From Candidatus Bathyarchaeota archaeon (GTDB lineage Archaea; Thermoproteota; Bathyarchaeia; Bathyarchaeales; Bathycorpusculaceae), in assembly GCA_963806535.1 (NCBI GenBank), contig CAWDYC010000007.1:64001-128000 (forward strand): 64,000 bases of DNA, in the 5' to 3' direction. The translations under genes were made by a program, and so were the position numbers. The notes below the pieces were generated by a model. The model searched no databases. It saw only the letters and a list, made by a program, of their open reading frames with translations, and was not told where the DNA came from. Shown here piece after piece: positions 27,991 to 52,450 of this stretch (within the stretch, counting starts at the first letter, position 1; each line of letters starts with the position of its first letter).

Positions 27991-28743
27991 CTACCCGAAC
28001 ATGCCCTTTATATAATTTGTAGTCAATTCACTTTCAGGCTTCTCGAAAAGAGTTTTGGTTTCATTGAACTCAATAAGCTCACCAACATACATAAAAGCTG
28101 TATAATCGGAAACCCTTAGCGCTTGCTGTAAGTTATGTGTAACTATTATAACAGTGTATTTTTCTTTAAGCTCTCCGACAAGGGATTCGATTCTTGAAGT
28201 AGCAGCTGGATCTAATGCGCTGCAGGGTTCATCCATCAGAATCAGTTCAGGTTCAGCAGCCAATGCGCGGGCTATGCACAGCCTTTGCTGTTGCCCACCT
28301 GAGAGACAAAAAGCGCTTTCATTCAATCGATCTTTTACTTCATCCCACAACCCAGCGCCTATAAGGCTATTTTCGACAATTTCCTTAAGTTTTTCTCCTT
28401 TCGCCGTGTTATGTATTCTAGGTCCAAAAGCTACATTTTCAAAAATTGATTTTGGGAATGGATTTGGTTTTTGAAAAACCATTCCAATTTTTCTCCTTAA
28501 GTCGTAAACATTACTATCGTCTCCATAAATATTTTGACCGCCAAAAATTATTTCGCCTGAGGTTTTGCAGCCAATAATAAAATCATTCATTCGATTAATT
28601 GACCGCAGAAGTGTTGATTTACCGCATCCTGAAGGACCCATTATAGCAGTTGTTGCATTTTCTCTTATTCCTATATCGACATCTTTCAGAACATGATTGT
28701 TTTTGAACCATAGATTGAATTTTTTTGTTTGGACTTTTCCCAA
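27991..28743 (-). CDS. pstB: Phosphate ABC transporter ATP-binding protein
   Basis: [45 protein letters not shown]; TTG start after GGAGG. Confidence 0.95.
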
Positions 28744-28983
28744 GTTTCCTCCTCCGGGTGACGAGTTGGCATTAACAAATGGTTTACCGTCCTTTCGTGT
28801 CTCAATTGGCTTCGATAACAATATTTGGTCTCCTTGGCATTTCTGCTGAAAATGTGAGCTCGTTTGGTTATATTGGTTTCCACAATAGGCATTATAGTAT
28901 ATATATTCTGTTTAGGCAACGAATTTATTATATAATTCATGAATAGGACACATACTTGCTAGCTTATTATGTGAGAAGGATCA

Positions 28984-30024
28984 ATGGTGTGGCAAACGAA
29001 ACAAGATGAAGAAACAAGAAAGGTCCAATTTACTGGCGGCTCAACTTATATTATTTCTCTTCCCAAAAGATGGATCTCTCAAAATCGAATAGAAAAAGGA
29101 AGCTTTATAAAATTACGTGAGGAAGAAGGCGGACTCTTAACAATTGTTCCACCAGGTTCATTAATTCATAACAAATTGGAAGAAGCAGTAATAAAAGTGT
29201 CTCTTGATGATGATTCCGAATCAATCACTCGAAAGATGGTGTCTGCCTATTTAGCAGGTTATGATTCAATTTACGTTAAAGCAGACAAACAGAATTTTTC
29301 AAATAAGCAAAGGCATGAAATGAAAAATTTTGTTCGACACATGCTTGTTGGAACCGAAATCGTAAGCGACACTTCCAATCAATTAATCTTGCAAGTTCTC
29401 TTAAGTTTTCCTGAATTGACCATTCAAAGCGCTTTAAGAAGAATGAGCATAATCACCAAATCGATGCACAATGACGCTGTAACGTGTATTACAACAAACG
29501 ATAAAGGACTTGCCAAAGAGGTCGTATCAACAGATAATGAGGTAGACAGATTCAATCTTTATGTAACTAGACTTTTGAAGACAGCCGTATACAGCCCACG
29601 ACTAATCAAAGAAATTGGGCTTCTAAACGGAGACGATTGTTTAGGATATCGCCTGGTAACAAAGTATGTTGAACGCACTGCTGACCATGCAGTGAGGATA
29701 GCAGAAAATGCATTGAACCTCAAGAGTACTCCAAATCATGAAATCACTCAAAGAATTGAAAAAATGAGCACAGCTGCCATAGAAATGTTTAGCAACGCAA
29801 TGGAATCGTTGTTTAGGCAAGACTACAAAGGCGCAGAAAAAATAATTCAAAGTCTCAAACAGCTTATAGACTTTGAAAAAGATGCCGTGTTGTTGTCTCA
29901 GTCAGATATAGAGCAAGATGCTATTTTGCGTTTGATTATTGAAAGCATAAAGAGAACCGCTGAATACGCGTGCGATATTTCGGAGATTGTTCTAAATTTG
30001 ACTATTGGTTCAATACTCGTGTGA
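28984..30024 (+). CDS. phoU: Archaeal phosphate uptake regulator (AbrB domain + 2x PhoU)
   Basis: RKVQFTGGSTYIISLPKRW AbrB domain; DNEVDR, ERTADHAVRIAE, RTAEYACDISE. Confidence 0.92.
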   Translation: MVWQTKQDEETRKVQFTGGSTYIISLPKRWISQNRIEKGSFIKLREEEGGLLTIVPPGSLIHNKLEEAVIKVSLDDDSESITRKMVSAYLAGYDSIYVKADKQNFSNKQRHEMKNFVRHMLVGTEIVSDTSNQLILQVLLSFPELTIQSALRRMSIITKSMHNDAVTCITTNDKGLAKEVVSTDNEVDRFNLYVTRLLKTAVYSPRLIKEIGLLNGDDCLGYRLVTKYVERTADHAVRIAENALNLKSTPNHEITQRIEKMSTAAIEMFSNAMESLFRQDYKGAEKIIQSLKQLIDFEKDAVLLSQSDIEQDAILRLIIESIKRTAEYACDISEIVLNLTIGSILV

Positions 30025-37121: not shown

Positions 37122-38498
37122 TTAAGGAAGTATTTGGAAGTTAACAATTGTTTCTGGGGCTAATGCGGTTTGATTTGAGTTTAACAAACAGATATATAAT
37201 GTCGCTTGACCAGTGAAAGCGGTCGAGGGGACAGAAAGAGTTAGATCAACTACGGTAAAGTTTTGCATTTGCAAAGTGTTTGTAAACCTATAAGAGCCTA
37301 TAGGGGTATTTGCTTGGTCAAATACAGTTATGTCTAGTTCAGAAGTTGGAGCGGAAAACAATCCATTATTTATTGTCAATTCGATTGGAAAAGCTTCTGA
37401 TCTGTGAACGCTTGAAGGGATTTGAATGTTCTCAACGTTACTCAAATAGTTAAAAGAAAAAGTTGTTGAATTACTCACGGTTCCTTGGGCAATACTTAAA
37501 GAAGCAGTTATTGACCAAGTGCCAAATACAATTTGAGTTGCATTGGGGTCTGGTGAAGGTAACCCATATTCAATTTGCGCAATACCACTTTGGTTTGTTG
37601 GAGCAACTTGAGTGGCTATCACGGAACCGTTTGTATTCTGAATTGAAAATAAAACGCTCTGATTGGAAAAGACTTGATTTTGATAGGTTACTAACGCGTA
37701 TATTTTAATCAGGTCTCGGGGGCCATACGTTGCCATCGATCCAGCGGCGGGTATACCTCCTTTGTTTTTGAAAACAGTTATTGTTGCATTTTGTAGCGGA
37801 GTTGAGTTGGGCGTTGGAGAAGGTGATGTACTGGGAGAAGGAGTTGGTGTGCTTTGAGATGTTGATGAAATAGTAACTGTTGCACTATTACAGGCAACGC
37901 TTAGCCCATTATCAGTAGGATTTTGGGCTTCACTGTAATTTGCATATACGCTAGCGTCTCCAATTGTTATAGGGCTAGTTCCAAAGTTTGTAATATTAAA
38001 TGTCAATGTTGATATTACTCCTGACGAAGCACGAGCTACTGCGTCTGTTTGAATAGCTTCCGTCAAGCCACCCATAATTGATCCCCCTAAGTTATCCCAG
38101 AGCGATTTTGTGTTGCCTAGGAATGCTACAGGGCCATTCTTCGTATTATTGGCTAGAAATGGTCCTTCTTGGACTTGTATAAGCTGTATTACGCTTGAAT
38201 TCCAGGTTACTGTAGGTATAGTCCAGCTCCAAATGCTTGGCACGTTATCGATTCTAACATCGATTTTGAAAGTGGTGTTAATTGGGGTAGGATTGGAACC
38301 AATTGTTATTTGCGAATTATTCGTGGTTCCTGAAAGAACTGCACTCATAGAAGTGGGAGGAGAACTAGCTAAACTTGAGCTTACTATCGTAAATATCGTT
38401 AAGGCGAGTGATATTGTCATTAGCGACACGATTAGTTTCTTAGCCAGCTTCATTTTGCATGTTTTCCTCAATAGTTTTAAGGGATAAGTTATTTTCAA
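37122..38498 (-). CDS. Secreted cohesin-domain protein (1 cohesin + P/T linker + Ig-like C-terminal domains)
   Basis: WSW...WN..VIQL..VQEGPFL...DN.GG.I.GGL.EA...GVISTLTF; TPTPSPS linker. Confidence 0.75.
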   Translation of the reverse strand: MKITYPLKLLRKTCKMKLAKKLIVSLMTISLALTIFTIVSSSLASSPPTSMSAVLSGTTNNSQITIGSNPTPINTTFKIDVRIDNVPSIWSWTIPTVTWNSSVIQLIQVQEGPFLANNTKNGPVAFLGNTKSLWDNLGGSIMGGLTEAIQTDAVARASSGVISTLTFNITNFGTSPITIGDASVYANYSEAQNPTDNGLSVACNSATVTISSTSQSTPTPSPSTSPSPTPNSTPLQNATITVFKNKGGIPAAGSMATYGPRDLIKIYALVTYQNQVFSNQSVLFSIQNTNGSVIATQVAPTNQSGIAQIEYGLPSPDPNATQIVFGTWSITASLSIAQGTVSNSTTFSFNYLSNVENIQIPSSVHRSEAFPIELTINNGLFSAPTSELDITVFDQANTPIGSYRFTNTLQMQNFTVVDLTLSVPSTAFTGQATLYICLLNSNQTALAPETIVNFQILP

Positions 38499-40606
38499 GT
38501 TTTTATCTGGAAGTTAGAAGTTGATTCTGGACATAATGGCACTCCTCCGGCTGTGGGGAGATTTGTCATAACATTGACCCGAGTTGTCGCTGTTCCCACG
38601 AAAGCCCATGAAGGTATTGTTACAGTTATTGTAGAGCTTACTAATCCTCCCGAACCTGAATTAATCGTTGTTTTAGCAAAAGCCACAGGAACTTCTTGAT
38701 CATCACAAATGGTAACAGTTAGCAGTGCAGACATGTTGGCGGTTGCCTGAAGATTAATCGTTATTTGTATGGACTGTGATCTCTGCACACTGGCCGGTGT
38801 TTGAATTCCAGTGATACTTATTATGTTAATTAGGTAGTTGAATTTGAAATGTAGTGTATCTGTAACCACTACTTGTGAAATGTCAACTGACGCCACAATT
38901 GACCAATTTCCAAATAGAGATTGTTGATTAGTGTCTGGCCATGGAAGTCGGAATTCCCAATTTGCATATCCGGTTGCATTTGACAATGCTGAAGTCAGAC
39001 TAACAACTGTACCATTTGGATCCATGACGTCAAAGGCCACCAGTTTACCGACAACGGGGGCATTATTGTAAGTAACAAGGGCATATACTTTTACAAGCTC
39101 TTGAGGACCATAAGGACCGCTGTCAACATTTTGTCCTACTCCGCCTTTGTCAGTAAAAACATCAATTGATGCATTTTGAAGAGTACTTGATGGCACTATT
39201 TGTATCCAAGCATTTGTTGTTGAGGTATTGGAGTAGCTTGACGAGGGAACTGATTTTAAATCAGGGGCAGTAACGATCAAAGTTATTTTAAGGGTTGTTG
39301 GAGCTGATACAATAAAAGAAACGGCTTTACCGCTGTAGGATCCAAACAGTGACATGTTAGAATATTGTACTAACCAAGCATAATTTGTAATGTCACAGGT
39401 CATTCCGTCCCAACCAGCAGTTGAAGCACTTCCATCTAAAAGGATAGGGGCACCTACGGAAAAGGTGGTTCCGTTTGCGGGATTGAAATTAGCCACTGGA
39501 TTGGTTGGATTCGTTGGAGTAGGAGTTGGTGTAGGAGATGAGGAAGGAGTTGGCGTAGGAGTTGGGCTTCCTGAGGGTAAAACTGAAATTAATGCGCTAT
39601 TGCAGGTTGCACTGCTGCCAATGTCGCTGCTGCTCGAGTATACTGTAAAGCTGCTAATTGTCAGTGGGGTTGTTCCGTAACCTGTTACGTTAAATGTTAA
39701 CGTTGCAAGTACCCCCGCGGTGCCAACCGCGTGTACATTAGATCTAAGTGCTTCACTTAAGCCTCCCAAAATTGAACCGCCAGTATTGTCCCACAATTGA
39801 GAACTATCTCCTATGAAAGATGTCCCACCTCCCGTGCCAAGAAACGGTCCTTCTGAAACGCTTGTTAACTGAAGGATTGAAGCATTCCAATTTACGTTAT
39901 CCAATGTCCAACCCCAAAGATTAGCAACATTATCGACTCTAACATCAATGGATATAGAGGAGCCCATTGGATCGGGACTGGGACCTACCGTAATGCTTAG
40001 AGTGCTCGTAGTTCCCGATTTAACAGCACTTGCAACGGCACTCGAAGCAGCGCTGAAAGCCATAGTTGGTTCCGAATAACTGAAAGCAGCGTTTGCTACT
40101 GTTGCAGGTATCAGAGGATTGGAAGGTCCGGAGCCTTGGATTGGTGCGAGCAATTGAACATTAGTTAGTGTTAGCTGGGTTGATCCAAAATTAATTATTT
40201 GGAAGAGAAAGATAGCCAAGTCGCCGGAACCTGAAACATTGCCTTGATTTGTTAGAATGTCGTTTATATTTTGAATTACACCTGCGCTGTTGTCTATTGG
40301 AGAGGAGGTAACTGACGTTTGTCCAGCGGTTCTAAGAAAAGAGCCTTCACTTGAATTCATTAATTGAAGAACCGAAGGATCCCATGATAAACCTAAACTC
40401 CAACCACAAAGACCATTTACGTTGGAAACATAAGCCGTCACAGCAAAGGTTGCCCCTATTCCAAACGATTGACCAGAAATTACCGGCGGATCTAAACTAA
40501 CAGAGGTAGATTCAGAGCCATAAATGCCTCTTGAGAAAAGTAATAACGAAGTAAAGATGATTGCGACAACGAACGCGCAAGTTATTTTTTTAGTTTTAAT
40601 TTTCAA
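38495..40606 (-). CDS. Scaffoldin-like protein: 2 cohesins + PT linker + PKD-like + Ig-like domains
   Basis: Two GW...WDP/WN..L.L..SEG.FL modules; (PT)n linker; LDGSAS PKD-like motif. Confidence 0.78.
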   Translation of the reverse strand: MKIKTKKITCAFVVAIIFTSLLLFSRGIYGSESTSVSLDPPVISGQSFGIGATFAVTAYVSNVNGLCGWSLGLSWDPSVLQLMNSSEGSFLRTAGQTSVTSSPIDNSAGVIQNINDILTNQGNVSGSGDLAIFLFQIINFGSTQLTLTNVQLLAPIQGSGPSNPLIPATVANAAFSYSEPTMAFSAASSAVASAVKSGTTSTLSITVGPSPDPMGSSISIDVRVDNVANLWGWTLDNVNWNASILQLTSVSEGPFLGTGGGTSFIGDSSQLWDNTGGSILGGLSEALRSNVHAVGTAGVLATLTFNVTGYGTTPLTISSFTVYSSSSDIGSSATCNSALISVLPSGSPTPTPTPSSSPTPTPTPTNPTNPVANFNPANGTTFSVGAPILLDGSASTAGWDGMTCDITNYAWLVQYSNMSLFGSYSGKAVSFIVSAPTTLKITLIVTAPDLKSVPSSSYSNTSTTNAWIQIVPSSTLQNASIDVFTDKGGVGQNVDSGPYGPQELVKVYALVTYNNAPVVGKLVAFDVMDPNGTVVSLTSALSNATGYANWEFRLPWPDTNQQSLFGNWSIVASVDISQVVVTDTLHFKFNYLINIISITGIQTPASVQRSQSIQITINLQATANMSALLTVTICDDQEVPVAFAKTTINSGSGGLVSSTITVTIPSWAFVGTATTRVNVMTNLPTAGGVPLCPESTSNFQIKT

Positions 40607-40797: not shown

Positions 40798-41412
40798 TTA
40801 AGGTATTACATTTACTATGGTAACCTGGCCGTTTACTGGCGTGCAATTGATATTTTGGTGAATGCCAGATTCGGCATTGGAGTTCGATTGAATTTCCATG
40901 GGATTGTATAAAATTACTGCTGAAGTTCCGCTTACTGGGTTCGGACCATTTATAGTGATTGGCGACGTTCCTGCTGCGATTACTGTGAATTTTAAGGTCA
41001 CAAGTACGCCACTGCCTTGAGCAGTCTTATTTTCATTTATTGCAGCCATAGTATTAATCAGATCCCCCCGGTAAGTTTCAGGTACACCATTAGTTGATAT
41101 AAAGAAAGTTGGTCCACCAGATTTTAGGAATGGACCTTCCGAAACTTGAGTTAGATTTAGAACTTGGGGGTTATAAGTTAGATTGTCAAGTTCCCAGCCC
41201 CAAAGGTTTTTAACATCAGTAATATTGAGGGTAACTTGGATCGTTTGTCCAATTTTTGCATTTTGAACTGTCGTAGATACAGGATCAACGCTAACCGTTG
41301 GTATTGTTTGTGATTGGACTGCGCCTGTAGATGACGAAAAGTAGACAAATGCAACGGCGGCGACTATAATTAGAAGGATTACTATTGTTGCAGTGATAAT
41401 TTTCTTATTCAT
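40798..41412 (-). CDS. N-terminally membrane-anchored single cohesin protein
   Basis: N-terminal TM; LWGWE..YNPQVLNLTQVSEGPFL...GSGVLVTLKF. Confidence 0.75.
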   Translation of the reverse strand: MNKKIITATIVILLIIVAAVAFVYFSSSTGAVQSQTIPTVSVDPVSTTVQNAKIGQTIQVTLNITDVKNLWGWELDNLTYNPQVLNLTQVSEGPFLKSGGPTFFISTNGVPETYRGDLINTMAAINENKTAQGSGVLVTLKFTVIAAGTSPITINGPNPVSGTSAVILYNPMEIQSNSNAESGIHQNINCTPVNGQVTIVNVIP

Positions 41413-41591: not shown

Positions 41592-42467
41592 CTACAAAAA
41601 AGATACCGGTTCTCTTACCGTTTTCCTCTTTATTTGGAATGCCAAAGCTGCTATCAATGGAATTACTAAGAGTGGCACTATTATCCAGGTTGAAAGTTCC
41701 GGTGTGGTTGGTGTTGGGCTGCTAGTTGGTTGGGATGAACTGGACTGGGTCGGATGAGTGTTCTGTGTAACAGTGGATGTTGGGCTCGATTGTGCAGTAT
41801 TTTGGGGGGTGGCGGTGGCAGTTGGGCTTGAAAAAGGAGAATTGTCAGTAATGGTGACTGTGGCACTATTGCACTTTACATTTATTGGATTGCTAAGATC
41901 GTTATCACTCGCATAAACGGTGGCACCTCCAATAGTTATTTGACAATTGCCTGAGCCGACAACTGTGAAAATCAACGTTGATACGATACCTGAAAAATCA
42001 TGAGATTGTCCGGCAACATTCATTGATTCTGCAAGTCCGCCATTTAACACTCCGTTGACATTATCCCACAATTGAGGTGAGTTGCCAATCATGTAAGCTG
42101 AATATTGAGTGTTGCTCAATAAGAACGGGCCTTCAGTAACTTGGGTCAGATTCACTACTGCTGGATTCCATGTTACAGTGGATATGGTCCAAGCCCAAAT
42201 ATTTGTGACGTTTTCAATCTTTATGTCTATGCTGACATTGGTACCTAGAGCTACTGAACCTAGGGAAATTTGGGACGTGTACTGCGTACCAGATTGCACC
42301 ACACTAAAGACAGCATTTGAAAGAGGGCTTGATGTTGCCATAGGGATAATCTGCTGATTAGTGCCAGCCATCGCAGTCTCACTGAATAACAATCTTGATT
42401 CTGACATTATAGCTAGAAGAAATAGACAGATAAGAAATACAGAGATTATTGTTTTTCTTTTATTCAA
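41592..42467 (-). CDS. Cohesin protein with S/T linker and PEF-CTERM-like anchor
   Basis: WNPAVVNLTQVTEGPFL; C-terminus TPELSTWIIVPLLVIPLIAALAFQIKRK. Confidence 0.78.
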   Translation of the reverse strand: MNKRKTIISVFLICLFLLAIMSESRLLFSETAMAGTNQQIIPMATSSPLSNAVFSVVQSGTQYTSQISLGSVALGTNVSIDIKIENVTNIWAWTISTVTWNPAVVNLTQVTEGPFLLSNTQYSAYMIGNSPQLWDNVNGVLNGGLAESMNVAGQSHDFSGIVSTLIFTVVGSGNCQITIGGATVYASDNDLSNPINVKCNSATVTITDNSPFSSPTATATPQNTAQSSPTSTVTQNTHPTQSSSSQPTSSPTPTTPELSTWIIVPLLVIPLIAALAFQIKRKTVREPVSFL

Positions 42468-42622: not shown

Positions 42623-43747
42623 TTATGTACTTTTTCTTAGCCAGAAAAATGATCCGCCTAGTACTAGTATAGTGAGGATCACAACAATAGCAAGTACTTC
42701 TGGAGGAAGACTGGTTGACCCATTTTGATTCGGGTTATTGCTTGGACTAGAGGTTGGTGAAGCGGTCTCAATGGGAGTTGTTGAAGGATTTGAGCTTGAA
42801 GTAGGAGCAGTTGTCGTATCAGGTGTTGGGGATGGCGACGCATCAGCGCTGGGTATCACTGTTACAACGTGTACGCAACTGCTATTGCCAATTGAATCCT
42901 GCACTGTCAACGTAACATTAAAAGTTCCGGGATTGTTGAAGGTATAGTTGGCAATAATGCCCGTGAGATTTTTTGGTGTGCCATCTGTAAAAGTCCATGT
43001 GTAATTAGTGTTTGTTCCACTTGAAACGGATTGAGAAGCATTAAAGACTGCTTGAGCGCCTTGAACAATTGTTTCGTCTCTACCGGCATTTGCTGTTGGC
43101 GGTCCCGGAATGATAATGGATATTATAGCGGTTGATTGAGGAGAGACTGGAGTTATTATTGGATGATCTGCTCCTGTTTGAACACTCACTGGATTTGGTC
43201 CCAAAAGCTGCTCTACTTCGATAGTAACAGGAGTTGAGGTCGTCTGTCTTGTGGCTTGAAACTGCAGAGTTGCAAGGACTCCGCTCCCACTTGCTGATTG
43301 GTCCATAGTATCGTTACTTGAAGTACATGCGGCTTGTATCTCTATTCCCTGAAAACTGTCTGAGTGGTAATATGGGTCTGAGAAGTTGTAAGGATTTGTG
43401 CTGTAAAGAAATAGGTCTGAATCAACTTGGTTTTTGAGGAAACTTCCTTCACTGGCACCGGTGAAAGTTACATATCGGCTATCCCAAGAAACATTCATAA
43501 CCCATCCCCAAAGATTTTGAACATTATTAATCTTTATGTCTTCGCTGAAAGCTTGCCCTTGCTGTGTTGCATTAAAGCTCAATGGATCTAAGGAAATGGT
43601 AGTCCCCGAAGTTTGAGCTTTCACAATCTGCCCAAATGGAATTACAACAAAAACAAATGTACTAACTAGCAAAGAAATGAAAAATAGGGTAATAAGTCTA
43701 GTATGCCCAGAATTGTATGTATGCAGCTGTAAATTTGATAAAGTCAC
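42623..43747 (-). CDS. Cohesin + PKD protein with C-terminal TM anchor
   Basis: LWGW..VSWD..ASEGSFL; PTANAG..FNASQS..YTWTF..PGTFNVTLTVQD; C-terminal TM followed by RK. Confidence 0.8.
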   Translation of the reverse strand: MTLSNLQLHTYNSGHTRLITLFFISLLVSTFVFVVIPFGQIVKAQTSGTTISLDPLSFNATQQGQAFSEDIKINNVQNLWGWVMNVSWDSRYVTFTGASEGSFLKNQVDSDLFLYSTNPYNFSDPYYHSDSFQGIEIQAACTSSNDTMDQSASGSGVLATLQFQATRQTTSTPVTIEVEQLLGPNPVSVQTGADHPIITPVSPQSTAIISIIIPGPPTANAGRDETIVQGAQAVFNASQSVSSGTNTNYTWTFTDGTPKNLTGIIANYTFNNPGTFNVTLTVQDSIGNSSCVHVVTVIPSADASPSPTPDTTTAPTSSSNPSTTPIETASPTSSPSNNPNQNGSTSLPPEVLAIVVILTILVLGGSFFWLRKST

Positions 43748-44678
43748 TACCAGTTACCTTCCCGTCATTGTTGATATCGCAAAGGTGATTAAAAGGTTGA
43801 TTTTGGTAATACATTATGTAAGCGTTACAGAAGACAATTAGATCTGTACCGTCAACTTTGCTGTCACCGTTGAAGTCACCCACTAATAAAGCGCTAAATG
43901 ATGTGCTATTTACGGTTCTGAAACCACCAAATGGTGAGGACGCGTATACTAGATATGCGCCATTTTGTGAGGCCTTTGGAAGTCTAAAAGTCATGCTGTA
44001 AGCGCCTGAATTTCCGTTGTTGCTCGGTGCAGGACCAGTGCTTGCATGCCCACCAGTAATAGTGAATTGAAATGATTGTTCTTGAGCCATAGGTAGTCCA
44101 TTATTTTGTGGAAAGTCATCATACACGTCTACATAACAATATGCAGTTCCAGCATGCGCCGATAAAGGAATATTTATTGGCAAAGTTGATGTTTGAGCTG
44201 CACTAGCGCCAAGAGAAAGCGTATTGGTTAATGGGACACCTAGAGGCACTCCATTGCCATCGTATACGCTATATGCAAGGACCAAATTTTCGTGGGAGTG
44301 TGCATCTTGATCTTGCACAGTTATTGTAGCATATCCACTATTTCCATTCGCAATAGTATTAACGGGATTTTTGCCAAGATCAGAAAAATATGCAGACGTG
44401 ATTTTGGTTGGCATGCTGAAATCTTGCACATTCCCTGTTTGAATGGTTCTTAGGATTAGCGGGGTTCCATCGGGGTTTTGTATTTGGAGTCCAATGAAAG
44501 CGTCCGATGAACTTATTCCGTTCGCTTGTAATGTTCCGCTCAGAGTTATTTGATCATAGTAATTGTATGACTGTTTATCGGTTGTAATTGTGAGATTATT
44601 TGTTTGTGCTCTAACTACTATTACGCTTGACATTATTAATATAAAAAGAAAAGGAAGGATGAGAGTTTTTGTTTTCAT
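43698..44678 (-). CDS. Secreted Ig/MG2-like domain protein with C-terminal dockerin
   Basis: Signal peptide, TDKQSY; GDFNGDSKVDGTD and CDINNDGKVTGSD. Confidence 0.8.
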   Translation of the reverse strand: MKTKTLILPFLFILIMSSVIVVRAQTNNLTITTDKQSYNYYDQITLSGTLQANGISSSDAFIGLQIQNPDGTPLILRTIQTGNVQDFSMPTKITSAYFSDLGKNPVNTIANGNSGYATITVQDQDAHSHENLVLAYSVYDGNGVPLGVPLTNTLSLGASAAQTSTLPINIPLSAHAGTAYCYVDVYDDFPQNNGLPMAQEQSFQFTITGGHASTGPAPSNNGNSGAYSMTFRLPKASQNGAYLVYASSPFGGFRTVNSTSFSALLVGDFNGDSKVDGTDLIVFCNAYIMYYQNQPFNHLCDINNDGKVTGSDFIKFTAAYIQFWAY

Positions 44679-44700: not shown

Positions 44701-46929
44701 TTAATGTGTTGCGGATGCTTCGATGGCTAATGTGGCTGATTGCTGTGGGCTGAATGGTAATCCAAGGTTTTGTGGCAAGTCGCTATATATGTTAACATTG
44801 AGTGTTGCTGGTCCTACGAATGCCCATGTTGGAATTTGCAAAGTAATGCTATAGGTTGCAGTGTTTGTGCTTCCGGCTATGCCGCTGGTGGCTCCATTAA
44901 TTGATTCTACCATGAAGTATTTTTGGACTGGTACATTGTTTGCGTCCATAATTGTTGCGCCGATATAGAACGTCATGTTGCTCCAGTTTGAATTAGTGAC
45001 TGTTACATTTGCATTTACTGTGTTGCCTGTTGTACTGTAGCGATTGAACATTGGTCCGTATAATGCACTCATGTTGCCGTCACTGTTTGTGATTACTACG
45101 GGTTTCAGTTCTAATAGGTACCCATAGTAGAAGGCGCATGAGTCATTGTATGTTTTTTCCGAAACGTCGACTGATGATGTTATGTTAACGGTGCCAAAGT
45201 AACTTGTTGGATTGCTGTCTTGCCATGGAAGTCTGTACGAAGCTGTAGCGATTCCGTTTGTGTCGGTTTGACCTGTAGCATAATCGATGTATTGACCTTG
45301 GAGATATACGTTGAATGTTACTGTTTTGTTGACAACTGGTGCACCATTGTAGGTTACTTGGGCAGTTATGTTAACTTGTTGCTGTGGACCGAATGAGTTT
45401 GCACTCATGTTCCAGCCTTGTCCGCCGTTTTGTGTCCAAATGTCTAATTGTCCGCCTGTGTAGGGTACAAGTACTTGGATATTTAATGTTGCTACGCTTG
45501 TGCTAGTGTAGGTGGGTGCTGATTGTCCATCGACATCAGGTGCAGTAACTGTTAAGACAGCTGTTATGTTTCCTGTCATAGATCCCACTTGTGCAGGTGT
45601 AAGGTCTACCTGTTGTGAATTGGCAACGGTTAAGACGGTTCCGTTTACAAGTGTAATACTCCATGCTGAGGTCATTATTGGATCGGTCTCTCCTGGAGGA
45701 ACTGTGTCGTGACCTGCTACGGAAGTGATTGCGCTTAAGCTGATTGGAACGTTGTAGTATGTTTTGGCAATACCGTTACCGAATGGGCTGTTAAGTACAG
45801 TGATTTTTGCTTGAGGTCCTGCTGCGGATAATGGGGCCCATGTGTAAGTTGCACCATTTAGGTTTACTGGACTGATTGTGTTGTGTGGATAGTTGGAATC
45901 TAGTAGAGTTGGACTTCCTGCAACTAAGTTGATAGAGGCGTTTCCAAAGCTTATTACAGTGAAGCTGAGAACTGCTAGGTTGCCTGATGATGCACTTGGG
46001 TGAGTGTAGGTTTTTAGAGCATCTACGATTTGGCCTTCAACTACGCCGTTTGTGTTGTCAATGTTGCCGGCAAGGAACCATGTGGTGTTAGTTACGCCTG
46101 AGTTTAGGAATGAGCCTTCAGTAATGCTGGTTAGTTGAAGCACTGTTGGAGTCCATGTTAGGCCTACGTTCCATGACCAAACGTTTGGTGCGCTTGAGAT
46201 GTTCATGTCAACATTGAAGGTTGTACCGACTGGGTTGACGTTTGAGGGTACGGTTATGGCTGGATTTGAGGTTCCGCTTGCCCACAGGTTGATAGCTGTG
46301 ACAGGGGCTGCAACTGAGACAGATGCACTATTGCATTGTGCGGCTGTTCCTGCGTCGCTGCTGGTTGAATATAGTGTCATGCCGCTAATAGTTATTGGAC
46401 TATTACCGTAACCGACAACTATAAAGGTCAATTGTACAAGAATGCCTGAAGAATTGGTGTTTACGAAAGAGCCTTTGAGAGCTTCACTGAAGCCACCGTT
46501 GAGGGTTCCAGCAACGTTGTCAATTAAGCTTGGGTCGTCGCCGATGAAGTTAGTTCCTGATTTTGCTGGATAGGCTGTGTTGTTACCTAGCCAACTTTGG
46601 CCGTTAATGCTTGTCTGTGTTGAGGCGCCTTGTGAAAGACTTGTCATGTTGAGGACTGCGGGATTCCAAGATAGAGTTGCTAATGAATATCCCCATACGT
46701 TCGCTGCATTGTCGATTCTAACGTCGATAGATATAGTTGTACCGATTGGGTTCGGGCTAGAAGGTATGCTAATGCTATTCACATTAGTAGTACCTGTTTG
46801 CACTGCACTTATTGCGCCAGTGGAAGCTACTGCTCCAACTGTGCCTAGTGCGGCGAGCATGGGCGCTAGCATAAAAATAACTAGCGCGAATGCTATGATG
46901 GATTTTCTGTTATTGCGGTTTAGATTCAT
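44701..46929 (-). CDS. Scaffoldin-like protein: 2 cohesins + PKD-like + Ig-like domains (paralog of 38495-40606)
   Basis: Two WNPAVL/WTPTVL...EGSFL-type modules; DIWTQNGGQG..FGPQQ..VTYNGAPV..YRLPW domain. Confidence 0.78.
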   Translation of the reverse strand: MNLNRNNRKSIIAFALVIFMLAPMLAALGTVGAVASTGAISAVQTGTTNVNSISIPSSPNPIGTTISIDVRIDNAANVWGYSLATLSWNPAVLNMTSLSQGASTQTSINGQSWLGNNTAYPAKSGTNFIGDDPSLIDNVAGTLNGGFSEALKGSFVNTNSSGILVQLTFIVVGYGNSPITISGMTLYSTSSDAGTAAQCNSASVSVAAPVTAINLWASGTSNPAITVPSNVNPVGTTFNVDMNISSAPNVWSWNVGLTWTPTVLQLTSITEGSFLNSGVTNTTWFLAGNIDNTNGVVEGQIVDALKTYTHPSASSGNLAVLSFTVISFGNASINLVAGSPTLLDSNYPHNTISPVNLNGATYTWAPLSAAGPQAKITVLNSPFGNGIAKTYYNVPISLSAITSVAGHDTVPPGETDPIMTSAWSITLVNGTVLTVANSQQVDLTPAQVGSMTGNITAVLTVTAPDVDGQSAPTYTSTSVATLNIQVLVPYTGGQLDIWTQNGGQGWNMSANSFGPQQQVNITAQVTYNGAPVVNKTVTFNVYLQGQYIDYATGQTDTNGIATASYRLPWQDSNPTSYFGTVNITSSVDVSEKTYNDSCAFYYGYLLELKPVVITNSDGNMSALYGPMFNRYSTTGNTVNANVTVTNSNWSNMTFYIGATIMDANNVPVQKYFMVESINGATSGIAGSTNTATYSITLQIPTWAFVGPATLNVNIYSDLPQNLGLPFSPQQSATLAIEASATH

Positions 46930-46966: not shown

Positions 46967-48436
46967 TTAGTGGGTTGGGTTGTAGTTTGTGAAGTAATAG
47001 ATGTAAGCTCCGCTCCATTGGATGAAGTCTGTTCCGTCAACCTTTCCGTTGGCATTAATGTCTGCCATTGGGTTGTAGACTGCTCCGCTGCTAAGGTAAT
47101 AGTGGATATATGCATCGCAGAAGTAAATGAAGTCTGTACCAGTAACTTTGCCGTCAGGAATATGTTGAGTTTGACCTGAGAGTGGTGTGTATGCAGCGAG
47201 GTTTGAGTCAATTGGGGTTCCTCCGCTTAAGTCTGCGCGGCTCATTTCGATGTAGTTTTGGTCATTTACGAAGTCGCTTGCTCCGCCATTGGTTGTGTTG
47301 TACATCTTCATGTATGCAATCCAAACGCCTGCTTCAAGAGTTGGTCCTGTTTTTGGAATTTGGTTTGGTATTACTTCCCATAGCCATCTCCATGCCTGGT
47401 ATTGGCCTGTTGCTGCTACACCTTTTATTCCAGAATAACCGTAGATTACATCAGCTTTTGTTGGTTGAACTGCTGGTCCCCATGTGAAGCCATTTGTACC
47501 CCATGAGCTGTTGTATTGGAAGGTTGATTGGGGTAGATGAGCAACATTGAATGCGATGTTTATCTGGTTCATGCTGAATGATAAGGCATATCCTAGTGAT
47601 ATGAAACCGATACAGTCGGATAATGAACCGATGTTGCCAGCCTGAACTGTGTCTTTAATATTGATGTTTTCGGTGCATGGAATGTATGATGCTGTTTTAG
47701 TAGGGTCGTAACCAGTGACAATGCCTGCTGAGTTCTTCAGGAGGAAGCTGTTTTGGTTTGGAGCTCCAAAGTAGTTGTTGAAGCAGTCTGCTGTTCCGGA
47801 TGTTGGGTCTCTCATTGCACGGCTAATTGGTTCTGATAATGCCGCTGTAGGAACGCCTGCGGTTGATAAGCCCCAGAAAGTGAAGAAGTCATTCCAAGTG
47901 CTAAATGTAGATGCTGTTTGGCCGAGTTCATTTTTTGGAGTGGCTGCAAAGATACTGCATACTTGCAATGTTGTCAGGTTCTGTGGGAACCAAGAAGCCA
48001 TATCAGGGCTAATGACAATAGAGACACTGTCAATTGCTACAGCCCATGTTTGCATGTTAACCATGTTTGCATCGCCGTATTCAGCGGAAGTGCTTTGTGG
48101 AGGTCTGGACATTTCGCCGATATCAGCTGAGCTGTTTGACAAGTTTGGAATTGCTGTTCCGCTACCGAGTCCCTCGAGAGAAATTGGGGAAGTAATATTA
48201 TTAGCGCCCCAAGAAGGATTCCCGCCGTTGAGATTATTCCACCAACTCGGGAATGAGCTTGCTTCTTCCGCCGCAATTGGCAGAACGGTGCTTGAGCCTT
48301 TAATTGTCAATGTAGCTGGATTAACTAAGTGTCCGCCATCAAATGTAGTGGTTGCGCTTGCTAAAGTTGCCGCTGCAGAAACTGCCATCATAACTATTAA
48401 TGCTAGGCATACTAAATACTTAATATTTTTATTCAA
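46967..48436 (-). CDS. pstS: Phosphate-binding protein PstS with C-terminal dockerin
   Basis: IKGSSTVLP, GSGTAI, DIGEMSR, VAIDSV, RDPTSGT, IGFISLGY; PDGKVTGTDF and ADINANGKVDGTDF. Confidence 0.88.
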   Translation of the reverse strand: MNKNIKYLVCLALIVMMAVSAAATLASATTTFDGGHLVNPATLTIKGSSTVLPIAAEEASSFPSWWNNLNGGNPSWGANNITSPISLEGLGSGTAIPNLSNSSADIGEMSRPPQSTSAEYGDANMVNMQTWAVAIDSVSIVISPDMASWFPQNLTTLQVCSIFAATPKNELGQTASTFSTWNDFFTFWGLSTAGVPTAALSEPISRAMRDPTSGTADCFNNYFGAPNQNSFLLKNSAGIVTGYDPTKTASYIPCTENINIKDTVQAGNIGSLSDCIGFISLGYALSFSMNQINIAFNVAHLPQSTFQYNSSWGTNGFTWGPAVQPTKADVIYGYSGIKGVAATGQYQAWRWLWEVIPNQIPKTGPTLEAGVWIAYMKMYNTTNGGASDFVNDQNYIEMSRADLSGGTPIDSNLAAYTPLSGQTQHIPDGKVTGTDFIYFCDAYIHYYLSSGAVYNPMADINANGKVDGTDFIQWSGAYIYYFTNYNPTH

Positions 48437-48673
48437 TTTAGTTTTCTCCTTTCATTATCATGTGAACGATAAGTCGTTCAAAGTGAATATTGAAGCGGAG
48501 ACAATATCTAGCTTCCCGATGTAGTTTACGTTAGACAATTTAGCCTATAGGTTTTAGAAAGCCCTATGGAGAAAACATTACTCATCTACACTTACTATTA
48601 AGAATAAATAGAAAAGCGTTATCTTAGCTGCACTCACCTTTTGCGATTAGTTTGCGAGGAGAATAAGGGCTTT

Positions 48674-49561
48674 ATGAACACCAAAGTGTTTAAGGAAAAC
48701 TTGATTAAAGCCTTATTGTTTTTCTGTGCAATCTCCTCAATTGGCATAGTTTTTTTCATAATTTTCTTTTTGCTAAATAGCGGATACCCAGCAGTTATTC
48801 AGTGGTTTAGCCATGGATTTAATAGCATCCAAGGTTGCTATATTATTGAACTTACATACGACTCGCTATATCTTGCTCTGGGGGGAACATTATTAGCTAT
48901 TATTATTGGACTTCCTTGCGCAATTTATCTTGCAGAGTTCGCAGATAACAGATTAAGAAATATTGTAAAGCCTGCTCTAGAAGTACTTAATGGTTTTCCT
49001 TCAATTGTCATTGGAATAATAGGGTTTACAGTTTTATGCCTTAATTTGCCAAGTTTCGGATTTAGAGCTAGTTACAGCACTTTGGTTGGCTGGATTGTTC
49101 TCGGAATAATGTCATTGCCAGTAATAACAAGTGTTTCGGAAGATTCCTTAAGAGCTGTCCCTGATGAAATGAGAGAAGCCTCACTTGGACTGGGCGCCAC
49201 TAGGTGGCAAACAACCACTCAAGTATTGCTGTCAAGCGCATCGCCAGGAATCATTACAGCAATAGTATTAGGGTTTGCAAGCGCAATTGGAGAGACTATG
49301 GCAGTAATTTGGGTTATTGGCGGAGCTATGCCTCCACCACTTACACTAAATCCTTTAGTTCGAACTTACTCTATTACAGCTTGGATAGCGAACGTAGCAA
49401 CGGGGGATACATTCCAACCTGGCACTATTCTGTATCAACAGGTATTCGGTGCCGGAGTCATTCTTTTCGGAATTAACGCGTTTGTAGTTCTAGCTATTAG
49501 AAGGATATCATCAAGCAGATCTAAAACGAACTTGGGCATTGCGGAGAAATCTAAGAAATGA
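48674..49561 (+). CDS. pstC: Phosphate ABC transporter permease PstC
   Basis: AIYLAEF, GFPSIVIG, SEDSLRAVP..REASLGLGATRWQT, AIGETMAV. Confidence 0.92.
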   Translation: MNTKVFKENLIKALLFFCAISSIGIVFFIIFFLLNSGYPAVIQWFSHGFNSIQGCYIIELTYDSLYLALGGTLLAIIIGLPCAIYLAEFADNRLRNIVKPALEVLNGFPSIVIGIIGFTVLCLNLPSFGFRASYSTLVGWIVLGIMSLPVITSVSEDSLRAVPDEMREASLGLGATRWQTTTQVLLSSASPGIITAIVLGFASAIGETMAVIWVIGGAMPPPLTLNPLVRTYSITAWIANVATGDTFQPGTILYQQVFGAGVILFGINAFVVLAIRRISSSRSKTNLGIAEKSKK

Positions 49562-50973
49562 TTCTAAATCCGCAATTAAGAATTTCAAAGATTTCAAAAT
49601 ATTTAAAGAAAAGAGAAAAACCTTGTTTGATTAACGGATCTCTATTATTTGCGGCAGGCATAATTGTAACTATACCTGGGTTTGTTCACCTTTTCAACAG
49701 CTTACTAATTGATGGGTTTGCTCTAGCAACTTTCGATAAATTAATGGCTGATACTGCGGCTTCAGTACTCTTGATATTGCCAGCTCTAATAGTGTTTTCA
49801 ACAGGATACCTACTCTTGGAAGCCCAGTCTTTGGGTTGGAAACTTTCTATTGCAACTTGTCTAGTCGCCGTATTGTTAGGTGGCTTTGGTTTCTTGAGCG
49901 TTGAATTAGCGTTTATAATTGGAGTCTTAAGTGGCTTGGCAGCTGCGATGGAAATTAGATATCGGAAAAATAGAAATGATCAAAAAGATTCAGCGTTAAT
50001 AACAGAAAACGTTGTGAAATTAGGTCTAGCGTTGTCTGGGGCAATTTGCATAGTAACTCTTGCCGGCATGATTATTTATTTAGCTGTAAGAGGTTCATTG
50101 TTTTTCTCATGGAATTTTTTTGCTGGGCAAGATTTCGGTATGACTTACGCAGCAAAAGTTATTTCAGGTAAGGTGCCTGGCGGTTCGCTAAATTCAATTG
50201 GTGGATTCCTGCCGTACGCATTGGGTTCTTTACTCTTAGCGGGTCTTTGCGAATTGATAGCATTACCGATCGGTATTGGAGGAGCAATATACCTAGCTGA
50301 ATACGCTGGAAAAAATAGATTGACGTCTACAGTGCGTTACTTCATAGAAACGCTTGCGGGAATCCCCTCTATTGTCGTTGCGTTAGTAGGAGCTACCGTC
50401 TTTGTTGTTCTGTTTCAATGGGGTTATTGTGCTTGGGCAGCGGCTATATCATTATCTTTTATGATTTTGCCTTGGAATATTCGAATAGCAGAAGAAGCGA
50501 TTAGGTCAGTGCCAGCCGCATATAGGGAAGCTTCTTTTGCCTTAGGGGCTACAAAATGGCAGACTACGAGCAAGGCTGTGTTATTCGCCGCCTCACCTGG
50601 AATAATAACAGGCGTTCTCTTGGGTTTTGGTGAAGCCCTTGGTGAGACAATTGTTATTGCATTGACCGCCGGTTATGTGCCTATTTCCAATTTGAACGAG
50701 TACGGTCAGCCGATAATTCAAGGATGGACGGTTTTGCCGTCTGTAGCACATCTTTTTTCAACGCACACCACGATTACAACCCTTCCGATTTTTATTTGGC
50801 AAGCGCCAAAACTTTTGACTTTTGGTACGGGAGCCAGCGGCACAAGCTTGTCTTTCATGCAGTATGGATTAGCGTTGGCAGCTGGTTTTTATCTGGTAAT
50901 GATATACCTTGTAATCTGTGCTATTGCTCTTGTTGCGAGAAACTATTTAAGAAAAAGAATCCTAGGAAAGTAA
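49558..50973 (+). CDS. pstA: Phosphate ABC transporter permease PstA with N-terminal TM extension
   Basis: AIYLAEY, LAGIPSIV, EEAIRSVP..REASFALGATKWQT, LGET. Confidence 0.9.
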   Translation: MILNPQLRISKISKYLKKREKPCLINGSLLFAAGIIVTIPGFVHLFNSLLIDGFALATFDKLMADTAASVLLILPALIVFSTGYLLLEAQSLGWKLSIATCLVAVLLGGFGFLSVELAFIIGVLSGLAAAMEIRYRKNRNDQKDSALITENVVKLGLALSGAICIVTLAGMIIYLAVRGSLFFSWNFFAGQDFGMTYAAKVISGKVPGGSLNSIGGFLPYALGSLLLAGLCELIALPIGIGGAIYLAEYAGKNRLTSTVRYFIETLAGIPSIVVALVGATVFVVLFQWGYCAWAAAISLSFMILPWNIRIAEEAIRSVPAAYREASFALGATKWQTTSKAVLFAASPGIITGVLLGFGEALGETIVIALTAGYVPISNLNEYGQPIIQGWTVLPSVAHLFSTHTTITTLPIFIWQAPKLLTFGTGASGTSLSFMQYGLALAAGFYLVMIYLVICAIALVARNYLRKRILGK

Positions 50974-50977
50974 AAAC

Positions 50978-52450
50978 ATGAAACATCATAAAAGATCTTT
51001 TGCCAAGTTTATTGGAATAATAATGGTAGTCCTATTCTTAGTCTTACCATATACAATTCAATTTACTCATGCCCAAGCCAGTGGAAACGACAAATGGGCA
51101 TTAAACTTCCAAATTATGAATGCACAAAACGCCACTTCCACAACTTTCGCGCCTTTTGATGAAATCAAATTTAGCGCAAATGTAACCTATTCCAACGCCT
51201 CACAACCAGACATACTTGTAACCTTCAAGGTGCAAGGACCTACTGAATCACAAAACCCAATAAATATCACCCGAATAGCAACAACAAGCTCAAGTGGCGA
51301 AGCCGAATGTTCGTTCTTCTTACCAATAATGAACCAAAACAATAATTCAGTAACTGGGACTTGGCAAACCACCGCAACCATACGAACAAGCAACGGCACC
51401 ATTCAACAGAATCAGGATTTCACCACTCAATGGAAGCTGGAAATTAAGTCAATTAGCATAAAAAATTCTCAGAATCAAAACCAATCAATCTTTTACCCAG
51501 GAAATACCTGCGGTTTGCTGCTGGAATTGAAAAACAATGGACCATCACAAACGGCAAACATAACCCTTACCATGCAAGATTCAACAGGCAAGGTAATCAA
51601 CCAGACACAAATTGAAAATACTCAAGTGGAAACAACAACCACCAATTCAACACAAATCCAAAGCAGCATCCAAATACCTAACTCAGCGCTGACAGGTGAA
51701 TCTACAATTACAGGTGCAATTTACGCTGGAAACTACAATTATTCAATGTTGCCAGCAGGCGAAAATAAAACAGCATACTTTACAATTACTGGCAATATTG
51801 CACCTTCAACGACTGCTATTCCGACTCCCTCACCGACAGTGGAAAACGCGATGGGTCTATTCTCGTGGCTTCTAGTTGCAACAGGGCTATTTACATTCAC
51901 AGCATTATTTATGTTCTTGAAACGAAAAACCATTCCTGGAATTAACACTCAAATTCCAATAACTCCAGCGCCAACATCCAACCAAATCACAACAACCCTA
52001 CCGCCCCAACTATTAGAGCAACAACCGACTGGACAAACCGCATTGCTAGTTACACCAACAGCCAAAGTAGCCTCCGAAAAAACAGTCAATGCAACGCTGC
52101 CAATATCATTACCTAGCATTTATGAGACTCTAAATATGCCAACTTCAGAATCAACAAATCCTCAAGAACAAAAACAAATAATAATCAACCAGCTAACCAA
52201 AATTTCCAGCGCCAGCCAAAGAGTTCAAGCACTAGAATCTGCACTTAAAATAGAAAGAGAACAGCTCAGCAAAGAAATAGCAACTCTTACCAAAACACTT
52301 GAGGAACAAGAAAGAGCGGTCAAAAACTACTTCGACACAATAAAAGAAGAAATAGCAAAGCTAAACTCTAACCCAAACAGCGATAAGGAAGAAAATGCGC
52401 CTTCACAAAATAGGGTAAATCAACAACTTAAGAAAGATGGCGAGAATTAA
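50978..52450 (+). CDS. Single-pass surface protein: Ig-like ectodomains, TM, P/T/Q linker, cytoplasmic coiled coil
   Basis: Signal peptide; FAPFDE..ANVTY domain shared with the scaffoldins; TM followed by KRK; heptad-rich C-terminus. Confidence 0.75.
   Translation: MKHHKRSFAKFIGIIMVVLFLVLPYTIQFTHAQASGNDKWALNFQIMNAQNATSTTFAPFDEIKFSANVTYSNASQPDILVTFKVQGPTESQNPINITRIATTSSSGEAECSFFLPIMNQNNNSVTGTWQTTATIRTSNGTIQQNQDFTTQWKLEIKSISIKNSQNQNQSIFYPGNTCGLLLELKNNGPSQTANITLTMQDSTGKVINQTQIENTQVETTTTNSTQIQSSIQIPNSALTGESTITGAIYAGNYNYSMLPAGENKTAYFTITGNIAPSTTAIPTPSPTVENAMGLFSWLLVATGLFTFTALFMFLKRKTIPGINTQIPITPAPTSNQITTTLPPQLLEQQPTGQTALLVTPTAKVASEKTVNATLPISLPSIYETLNMPTSESTNPQEQKQIIINQLTKISSASQRVQALESALKIEREQLSKEIATLTKTLEEQERAVKNYFDTIKEEIAKLNSNPNSDKEENAPSQNRVNQQLKKDGEN

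Follow-up and report, generated by a model that had tools for sequence, protein, structure and literature searches.

Substrate-binding proteins (SBPs) of ATP-binding cassette (ABC) transporters that carry a dockerin have been described in the anaerobic methanotrophic (ANME) archaea by Chadwick et al. 2022 (PMC9012536). The main text of that paper names NikA/OppA and TroA types, and its S4 Data contains an ANME-2a protein of 356 amino acids (aa) in which residues 2-279 match the PstS model TIGR02136 (252.9 bits) and residues 284-339 a type I dockerin (cd14256). In the parts of the paper that concern these proteins, the combination of PstS with a dockerin is on record solely in this table. The subject here is a protein of related architecture, PstS-DOC, encoded on the reverse strand of a 64,000-nucleotide stretch of DNA (the window; contig 7, positions 64001-128000) from an uncultured soil archaeon of Candidatus Bathyarchaeota. 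An earlier note on this DNA had proposed a search for other proteins that join a periplasmic-binding-protein (PBP) domain to a dockerin, and the ANME-2a protein is such a precedent. What cohesin-dockerin modules do outside cellulosomes, above all in archaea, has been an open question since they were first noticed, and little is understood of how archaeal binding proteins that lack an anchor are kept close to their permeases.

We consider it fairly probable that PstS-DOC is the cohesin-docked substrate-binding protein of an accessory, second phosphate ABC importer. The parts of this importer would be PstS-DOC, PstC and PstA, encoded in one cluster, and PstB, encoded together with a PhoU-domain regulator 18 kb away. 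PstS-DOC would be exported by Sec, and its C-terminal dockerin-derived module would plug into a cohesin of a protein encoded directly downstream. The likeliest partners are the membrane-anchored cohesins, with the predicted layouts cohesin-PKD-linker-transmembrane segment, cohesin-linker-transmembrane segment and transmembrane segment-cohesin. Docking would keep phosphate-loaded PstS-DOC within reach of PstCA, with phosphate captured for PstCA/PstB. The tether would be a two-piece, non-covalent equivalent of the N-terminal transmembrane segment and Pro/Thr linker of the canonical PstS. Cohesin docking appears to be the best-supported reading because of the homology of the tail, the concentration of cohesin and dockerin genes in the window, the conserved gene order, and the presence of three membrane-anchored cohesin proteins.

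The PstS-like domain, the split-loop tail and the N-terminus

The domain that precedes the tail has the fold and the motifs of PstS. Pfam PF12849 (PBP_like_2) matches residues 42-244 with 35.7 bits, against a gathering threshold (GA) of 27. The NCBIfam model for PstS (TIGR02136) gives 57 bits against a cut-off of 206.6, and the N-terminal half alone is aligned. This score is far under the cut-off, and therefore PstS-DOC is, by these profiles, a divergent PstS lineage. An AlphaFold2 model of the full-length protein (80 sequences) has a mean predicted local distance difference test (pLDDT) score of 91.5 and a predicted template-modelling (pTM) score of 0.88. Among the Foldseek matches listed for this model in the Protein Data Bank (PDB), ranks 1-48 are phosphate-binding proteins and rank 49 is a LysR-type effector domain. 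The top match is 4jwo (E 1.9e-14, target-normalised TM-score of 0.70), and further matches after it include 8ods, 4omb, 1ixi and the cryo-EM entry of E. coli PstSCAB (9k3x).

The motifs of the domain, which we take to map to the phosphate-ligand residues in the numbering of E. coli PstS, are all present, as the earlier note had stated. Residues G47-S48(-S49-T50), G91-S92-G93, D105, S110(-R111) and (R209..)S213-G214-T215 are unchanged in all or nearly all of 80 sequences, and their family-level forms are GSST, GSG, D..GEMSR and R...SGT.D. They align with the G-S-x, D-I-x-x-x-S-R and R-x-x-x-SGT segments of solved phosphate-binding proteins (1twy, 4jwo).

The dockerin-homologous part comprises the last ~94 residues of the protein, and in the full-length model it contains two helices (residues 433-447 and 468-485). 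By curated thresholds this tail is not a dockerin, and the whole PstS-DOC sequence finds no dockerin match in Pfam at E 0.01, yet the homology of the tail to dockerins is clear from profile comparisons. An alignment of 15 PstS tails (A4) matches an alignment of 25 neighbouring dockerins (A5) in hhalign with a probability of 99.7% and an E value of 1.8e-26; 22 of the 25 members of A5 match PF00404, the best with 2.4e-12. The hidden Markov model (HMM) of the tail retrieves all six Pfam-positive dockerin open reading frames (ORFs) of the genome, with E values of 1e-10 to 1e-16. A sequence search of the PDB with the tail profile finds 17 matches at E up to 1, comprising 13 cellulosomal dockerin chains (E 0.09-0.7, none significant alone) and four EF-hand proteins, with no match at E ≤0.01. 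When the full-length model is compared with the folds in the PDB, the PBP part dominates every match.

The first Ca loop of the tail is split by an insertion, in agreement with the earlier note. In a MAFFT alignment, ADLSG(G) of PstS-DOC is aligned to GDLNG of the seven other dockerin modules of the genome, and a 22-residue gap follows before DGKVTGTD. The match between A4 and A5 begins at D-G-K-V, past the insertion. All 80 relatives have the insertion, with a length of 21-33 residues, and in 55 of them it is 21 residues long (G405 to P427). In comparison, the corresponding D-to-V stretch is 8 residues long in all 25 canonical neighbouring dockerins, and none of these has the insertion. The first half of the loop consists of D402 (72/80), a hydrophobic residue, A/T/S, and G405 (80/80). 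After the insertion come P427 (80/80), Asp (42/80), Gly (72/80), any residue, Val (76/80), three further variable residues, and D435 (80/80). Within the insertion L413, Q422 and P427 are invariant. The second Ca loop is canonical in PstS-DOC and in 57 of the 80 relatives.

The start codon of pstS-DOC is TTG, with GGAG located ~10 nucleotides (nt) upstream. The gene-caller version is shorter (474 aa from Met16) and drops the basic n-region that the relatives retain; a non-ATG start and the same MNK..K n-region are also found in several homologues. The N-terminus has the basic n-region, a hydrophobic core and A-S-A ahead of TTTF, and in the family consensus the hydrophobic h-region ends with A/V-H/x-A. 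The model shows a helix at residues 3-22 and a pLDDT <50 at residues 25-30. None of the 77 complete N-termini of the relatives matches the lipobox pattern [LVI][ASTVI][GAS]C, and no transmembrane segment is found after residue 60 in the 80 relatives, as judged by 19-residue hydropathy windows against a threshold of our own. The maximal mean hydropathy in this region is 1.84 among the 80 relatives and 1.35 in PstS-DOC itself. The signal peptide is probably cleaved, and the mature protein would have no lipid or transmembrane anchor of its own. The signal peptide had been called cleavable-looking in the earlier note, which had also recorded that a lipobox Cys and a C-terminal transmembrane segment are missing, and both absences hold across the family.

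Neighbouring genes and conserved gene order

The gene for PstS-DOC is divergent from pstCA and heads a tightly packed run, as described before. The gene for a two-cohesin protein of 742 aa follows after 37 bp and that for a dockerin protein of 326 aa after another 22 bp; the gene for a cohesin anchor of 374 aa overlaps the latter by 50 nt. The 742-aa protein has no transmembrane segment or dockerin of its own. With an iteratively built cohesin HMM, eight modules are found in six proteins downstream of pstS-DOC in the window, and three of the six proteins are transmembrane-anchored (Table 1). In the 2.9-Mb genome, five of the six Pfam cohesin matches and five of the six Pfam dockerin matches fall in this window. 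Adding one module on contig 3 to the eight in the window, the cohesins of the genome stand against eight dockerin proteins, with a maximum of two cohesins per protein.

It had been proposed in the earlier note that PstS-DOC is held at the surface by docking onto cohesins, possibly in many copies and away from the membrane permease. Docking onto cohesins is what the profiles and the gene order point to. The other part of the proposal finds no support. The proteins of this genome have at most two cohesins each, and cohesin modules and dockerin proteins are similar in number. Moreover, the cohesin group that is kept in every cluster is C-terminally transmembrane-anchored with a linker, which would keep PstS near the membrane.

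Relatives of PstS-DOC were collected in several ways. A word-indexed search finds 87 relatives, nearly all of full length, one of them labelled Bathyarchaeia. An HMM scan of 1.84 billion representatives gives 62 clusters at E ≤1e-30, and 26 of the best 150 cover the binding domain as well as the tail; 12 of 13 retrieved representatives carry the tail according to the tail HMM. From species-representative genomes, 17 related loci were obtained, 15 from genomes labelled Bathyarchaeia or Bathyarchaeota and two from genomes labelled as bacterial metagenome-assembled genomes. These loci contain 20 PstS-like genes; 14 of the genes are intact, and 13 of the intact ones have the tail. Two of the loci share part of one contig, and the end of a locus truncates one gene. 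For 13 of the 20 genes the first downstream gene has a cohesin, for 15 a cohesin is found within 5 kb downstream, and for 15 pstC/pstA are divergent upstream. The order of pstS-dockerin, cohesin and pstCA genes is retained in relatives with 32-52% identity. The cohesin-PKD-linker-transmembrane anchor is one orthologue group and is present in every cluster, including two minimal ones. The distribution of the family is patchy: 3 of the 301 genomes sampled from the class have it, as does one of 14 further genomes from the same genus.

A canonical regulator-pstSCAB-phoU cluster is encoded elsewhere in the genome (contig 4:228709-233425), and because of this the pstS-DOC locus is a predicted accessory, second Pst system. 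The PstS of the canonical cluster has an N-terminal transmembrane segment and a Pro/Thr linker of ~60 residues.

Table 1. Coordinates of pstS-DOC, its parts and the neighbouring genes in the window
Feature	Position	Strand	Description
pstS-DOC	46967..48436	-	489-aa secreted PstS-like phosphate-binding protein (predicted) with C-terminal dockerin-derived module
Residues 1-29	48350..48436	-	Sec-type signal peptide: n-region MNKNIK, h-region, A-S-A; cleavage putative
Residues ~36-395	47252..48331	-	Type II PBP domain, PstS type, from PF12849, Foldseek and motif alignment
Residues 401-405	47222..47236	-	N-terminal half of first dockerin Ca loop (A-D-L-S-G)
Residues 406-427	47156..47221	-	Conserved insertion splitting loop 1
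Residues 428-447	47096..47155	-	C-terminal half of loop 1 (D-G-K-V-T-G-T-D) and helix 1
Residues 459-485	46982..47062	-	Second Ca loop, canonical (D-I-N-A-N-G-K-V-D-G-T-D), and helix 2
pstC-like permease gene	48641..49561	+	Divergent from pstS-DOC; TIGR02138, 186.1 bits against cut-off of 196.45
pstA-like permease gene	49558..50973	+	TIGR00974, 183.8 bits against 193.45, residues 158-463
490-aa protein	50978..52450	+	Conserved single-pass membrane protein after pstA, no known family
pstB (ATPase)	27991..28821	-	Probable partner of the pstS-DOC system, 18 kb off; TIGR00972, 381 bits against 343.2
AbrB/MazE-PhoU protein	28984..30024	+	AbrB/MazE-type DNA-binding domain and PhoU domains; probable phosphate regulator, divergent to pstB
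742-aa protein	44701..46929	-	Secreted; two cohesin modules (47-198, 219-352) and immunoglobulin (Ig)-like C-terminal domains
326-aa protein	43698..44678	-	Secreted beta-sandwich protein with canonical dockerin (Pfam 28.8 bits, above GA)
374-aa anchor	42623..43747	-	Cohesin (50-193), PKD domain, S/T/P-rich linker, C-terminal transmembrane segment ending in basic residues
291-aa protein	41592..42467	-	Cohesin (59-197), P/T/S-rich linker, C-terminal transmembrane segment
204-aa protein	40798..41412	-	N-terminal hydrophobic (transmembrane) segment and cohesin (Pfam 31.9 bits, above GA)
703-aa and 458-aa proteins	37122..40606	-	Two secreted cohesin proteins, with two modules and one module, respectively; MG2-like Ig domains

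At its N-terminus the PstA-like permease is extended by ~150 residues, which include three or four additional hydrophobic segments, and its relatives (425-469 aa) keep the extension. The 490-aa gene is located after pstA, where pstB would be expected, and equivalents of 470-620 aa are found at the same position in most related loci. Its product is composed of a signal, an ectodomain of beta-sandwich type with a weak MG2 match, a transmembrane segment near residue 300 and a cytoplasmic tail that is coiled-coil and rich in Gln/Glu.

The region from 24048 to 55331 of the window (~31 kb) contains nearly the full cohesin/dockerin repertoire of the genome, interleaved with pstB, the gene for the PhoU-domain regulator and pstS/C/A, and it looks like one accessory surface-assembly island. 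In Pfam the other seven dockerin proteins of the genome have Ig-like, beta-sandwich, PKD or propeller domains, or nothing. A 'phosphate-scavenging cellulosome' with dockerin-tagged phosphatases was considered and is rejected for now, as these seven proteins show no such cargo in Pfam.

Conservation is striking in the C-terminal anchor of the cohesin-PKD orthologues (alignment A3; LPP.VLAILV..TI.V..GS..WLRKRT). The anchor resembles a sorting signal, although none of the NCBIfam sorting-domain models matched this segment. A family-wide search with A3 finds matches in 46 of 61 genomes, mostly on the PKD part, and this tally is not used for cohesins. Outside the island there are two dockerin proteins, a fusion protein on contig 3 (see below) and an 876-aa protein with a PQQ-like beta-propeller and Ig-like domains (L002:3712-6339(-), contig 3:153711-156338). 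The A3 profile also has a cohesin-region match in the 876-aa protein.

Several proteins combine the binding domain, or a remnant of it, with both a dockerin and cohesins. The contig-3 fusion (L001:5971-9093(-), contig 3:220973-224107) has 1040 aa and consists of a PKD-like region, a decayed PstS-like remnant, an extended dockerin with the insertion, and a cohesin. The GSST, GSG and DRPP..EW motifs are recognisable in the remnant, and the C-terminal domain has no Pfam match. The same layout is seen in two database proteins, P0091 (binding domain, tail and two cohesins) and P0126 (remnant, tail and three cohesins), and P0147 is also a PBP(-remnant)-dockerin-cohesin fusion. In another locus (L018:5744-8257(+)) a single 837-aa ORF covers the binding domain, the dockerin and two cohesins, beside a second, fragmented pstS copy; it is either a true fusion of pstS-DOC with the downstream scaffold gene or an assembly frameshift. 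In five related loci (L012, L016, L017, L018 second copy, L019) two ORFs stand in place of a whole PstS-like gene, with the cohesin genes intact, and either sequencing frameshifts or true decay of the binding protein could account for this.

Cohesin docking weighed against other explanations

Several observations weigh against a cohesin-docked phosphate-binding protein. Scanned alone, the tail reaches 19.6-20 bits for PF00404 (Dockerin_1) against a cut-off of 22.9; PstS-DOC reaches 26.9 bits for NCBIfam NF041540 (dockerin_GC) against a cut-off of 29, and only six of 15 family tails reach E 0.01 with Pfam Dockerin_1. Loop 1 is interrupted, its position-3 Asn is replaced by A/T/S in all 80 relatives, and position 5 is Asp in just 42 of them; in the second loop, the Asp at position 12 is changed to Ser in a subclade (21/80). 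Ca-dependent cohesin binding by the split-loop tail may therefore be altered or lost. Folded alone (15 sequences), the tail is modelled poorly, with a pLDDT of 55.8, as compared to 88-97 in the model of the whole protein. Because the tail is modelled confidently solely within the full-length protein, the models suggest that it is packed onto the binding domain. In the 5 kb downstream of several related pstS-DOC genes there is no cohesin gene, and three of these pstS-DOC genes are intact (L005, L007 and the first copy in L013). In addition, pstB does not adjoin pstS-DOC or pstCA. The NCBIfam scores of PstS, PstC and PstA are all under their equivalog cut-offs, and therefore we infer the substrate, phosphate, which PstS-DOC would bind through the conserved motifs. 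Finally, the hydrophobic N-terminus could be an uncleaved anchor. A complex prediction that paired residues 45-200 of the 374-aa anchor, its cohesin, with residues 396-489 of PstS-DOC, the tail, gave a score of 0.02 and a mark of 0.32; it covers one of nine cohesins and counts neither way.

Much of this would fit a dockerin-derived tail that is a structural Ca-binding or packing domain and does not bind cohesins, with PstS-DOC free in the pseudo-periplasm or held in another way. The split and degenerate first loop, the loss of Ca ligands in a subclade, the need of the tail model for the whole protein and the genes without a nearby cohesin agree with this explanation, as do the direct connection of the binding domain to the tail, with no linker between them, and the conservation of the insertion at the level of the fold core (Q422 and P427). 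However, we judge it unlikely, as the linkage to cohesins is kept in 15 of the 20 related genes, the second loop has stayed canonical in most relatives, and the same extended module directly precedes cohesins in the fusion proteins. The tail also co-varies with the other dockerins of its genome, the dockerin identity being 49.6% within one genome (n=6) and 36.9% between genomes (n=30), for small samples from kindred genomes. The cohesin could instead be the soluble partner, with PstS-DOC held in the membrane by an uncleaved signal anchor, its dockerin recruiting two-cohesin proteins to the transporter and PstS thus anchoring the scaffold. The adjoining 742-aa protein would suit such a role, the h-region is long (~17-20 residues, within the modelled helix), and the canonical PstS of the same genome is itself anchored at its N-terminus. 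This arrangement appears distinctly improbable given the family-wide A-x-A-type motif at the end of the h-region and the transmembrane-anchored cohesin proteins conserved in the operon; in addition, only ~10-20 residues separate the A-x-A-type motif from the first strand of the binding domain, compared to the ~60-residue linker in the transmembrane-anchored paralogue. Very improbable, in our view, is a PstS-like domain that is mainly a building block of a cohesin-dockerin surface lattice, structural or phosphate-sensing, with transport secondary or lost. The phosphate motifs are invariant in the stand-alone family and decayed in the fusions, and the divergent pairing with pstCA is conserved, even though such fusions occur in this genome and elsewhere (P0091, P0126, P0147), the domains that Pfam finds in the other dockerin cargos are just Ig-like, beta-sandwich or propeller domains, and the Atlas leads for the dockerin protein of the operon are MG2-, CARDB- and SlaA-like surface proteins (scores ≤0.90, leads only).

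A more specific form of the cohesin-docking reading is possible but doubtful. In this form, PstS-DOC would be part of a dedicated, heritable plug-in phosphate importer of a Bathyarchaeia lineage: a re-engineered PstS dockerin would sit in a fixed orientation on transmembrane-anchored cohesins, within a defined surface assembly of cohesins and dockerins with about one socket per plug, the insertion would clamp the dockerin rigidly to the binding domain, and the PstS-like domain would have been co-opted as a structural unit of this assembly in the fusion scaffolds. If true, this would be the first archaeal cohesin-dockerin system with a function readable from a conserved operon and testable with one ligand.

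Comparison with known systems

The sugar-binding proteins of the Sulfolobus 'bindosome' have pilin-like class III signal peptides. PstS-DOC would share with them the placement of archaeal binding proteins in a surface-held assembly with no lipid anchor. The mechanism is different, and the class III K/R-G/A cleavage motif is absent from the N-termini of the PstS-DOC family, as judged by eye.

The pstS-DOC cluster is a compact and conserved test case: it encodes a single binding protein with a predicted ligand, a single pair of permeases and a few candidate cohesin anchors, and the transmembrane-tethered PstS paralogue of the same genome could serve as an internal control. As a naturally occurring variant, the split-loop dockerin can tell how far a dockerin depends on its first Ca site. 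Our literature search found no description of the divergent PstS family, the split-loop dockerin, the operon of pstCA and pstS-DOC with cohesins, or the PBP-dockerin-cohesin fusions. The novelty is limited to the split-loop dockerin, the conserved operon and the fusions; the finding extends a published pattern and offers a clean, testable case, with no new principle.

The tail resembles the type I dockerins of cellulosomes (PF00404/PF00963; 1ohz, 2ccl) in having two tandem Ca-loop/helix repeats, with beta-sandwich cohesin partners encoded nearby, and its second repeat is canonical (D-x-N-x-N-G-x-V-D-x-x-D). There are clear differences, however. Loop 1 is split by 21-33 residues in the PstS-DOC family, the cargo is connected without a flexible linker, and the helices of the tail are rich in aromatic residues (AYIxYY). 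The cargo is a predicted transport receptor and not an enzyme, and there is no poly-cohesin scaffoldin among the proteins of this genome, each having two cohesins at most.

PstS-DOC is similar to the canonical PstS of the E. coli type in its type II fold, its phosphate-binding motifs and its predicted pairing with PstC, PstA and PstB. The canonical copy in the same genome is held by its transmembrane segment and linker and shares one operon with pstB and phoU. In comparison, the signal of PstS-DOC looks cleavable, the protein carries a dockerin tail, and its gene has cohesin genes as neighbours and pstB at a distance.

The closest described proteins are those of the ANME archaea (PMC9012536), which also combine an archaeal binding protein with a C-terminal dockerin in genomes that encode cohesins. 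PstS-DOC fits this class of archaeal SBP-dockerin fusions, which is a class of architecture and not a sequence family. The ANME-2a PstS passes the PstS model and its dockerin is contiguous, whereas PstS-DOC is divergent and its first loop has the conserved insertion. The section of that paper on these binding proteins describes no operon that joins a binding protein, transmembrane-anchored cohesins and permease genes, whereas such a gene cluster is present here.

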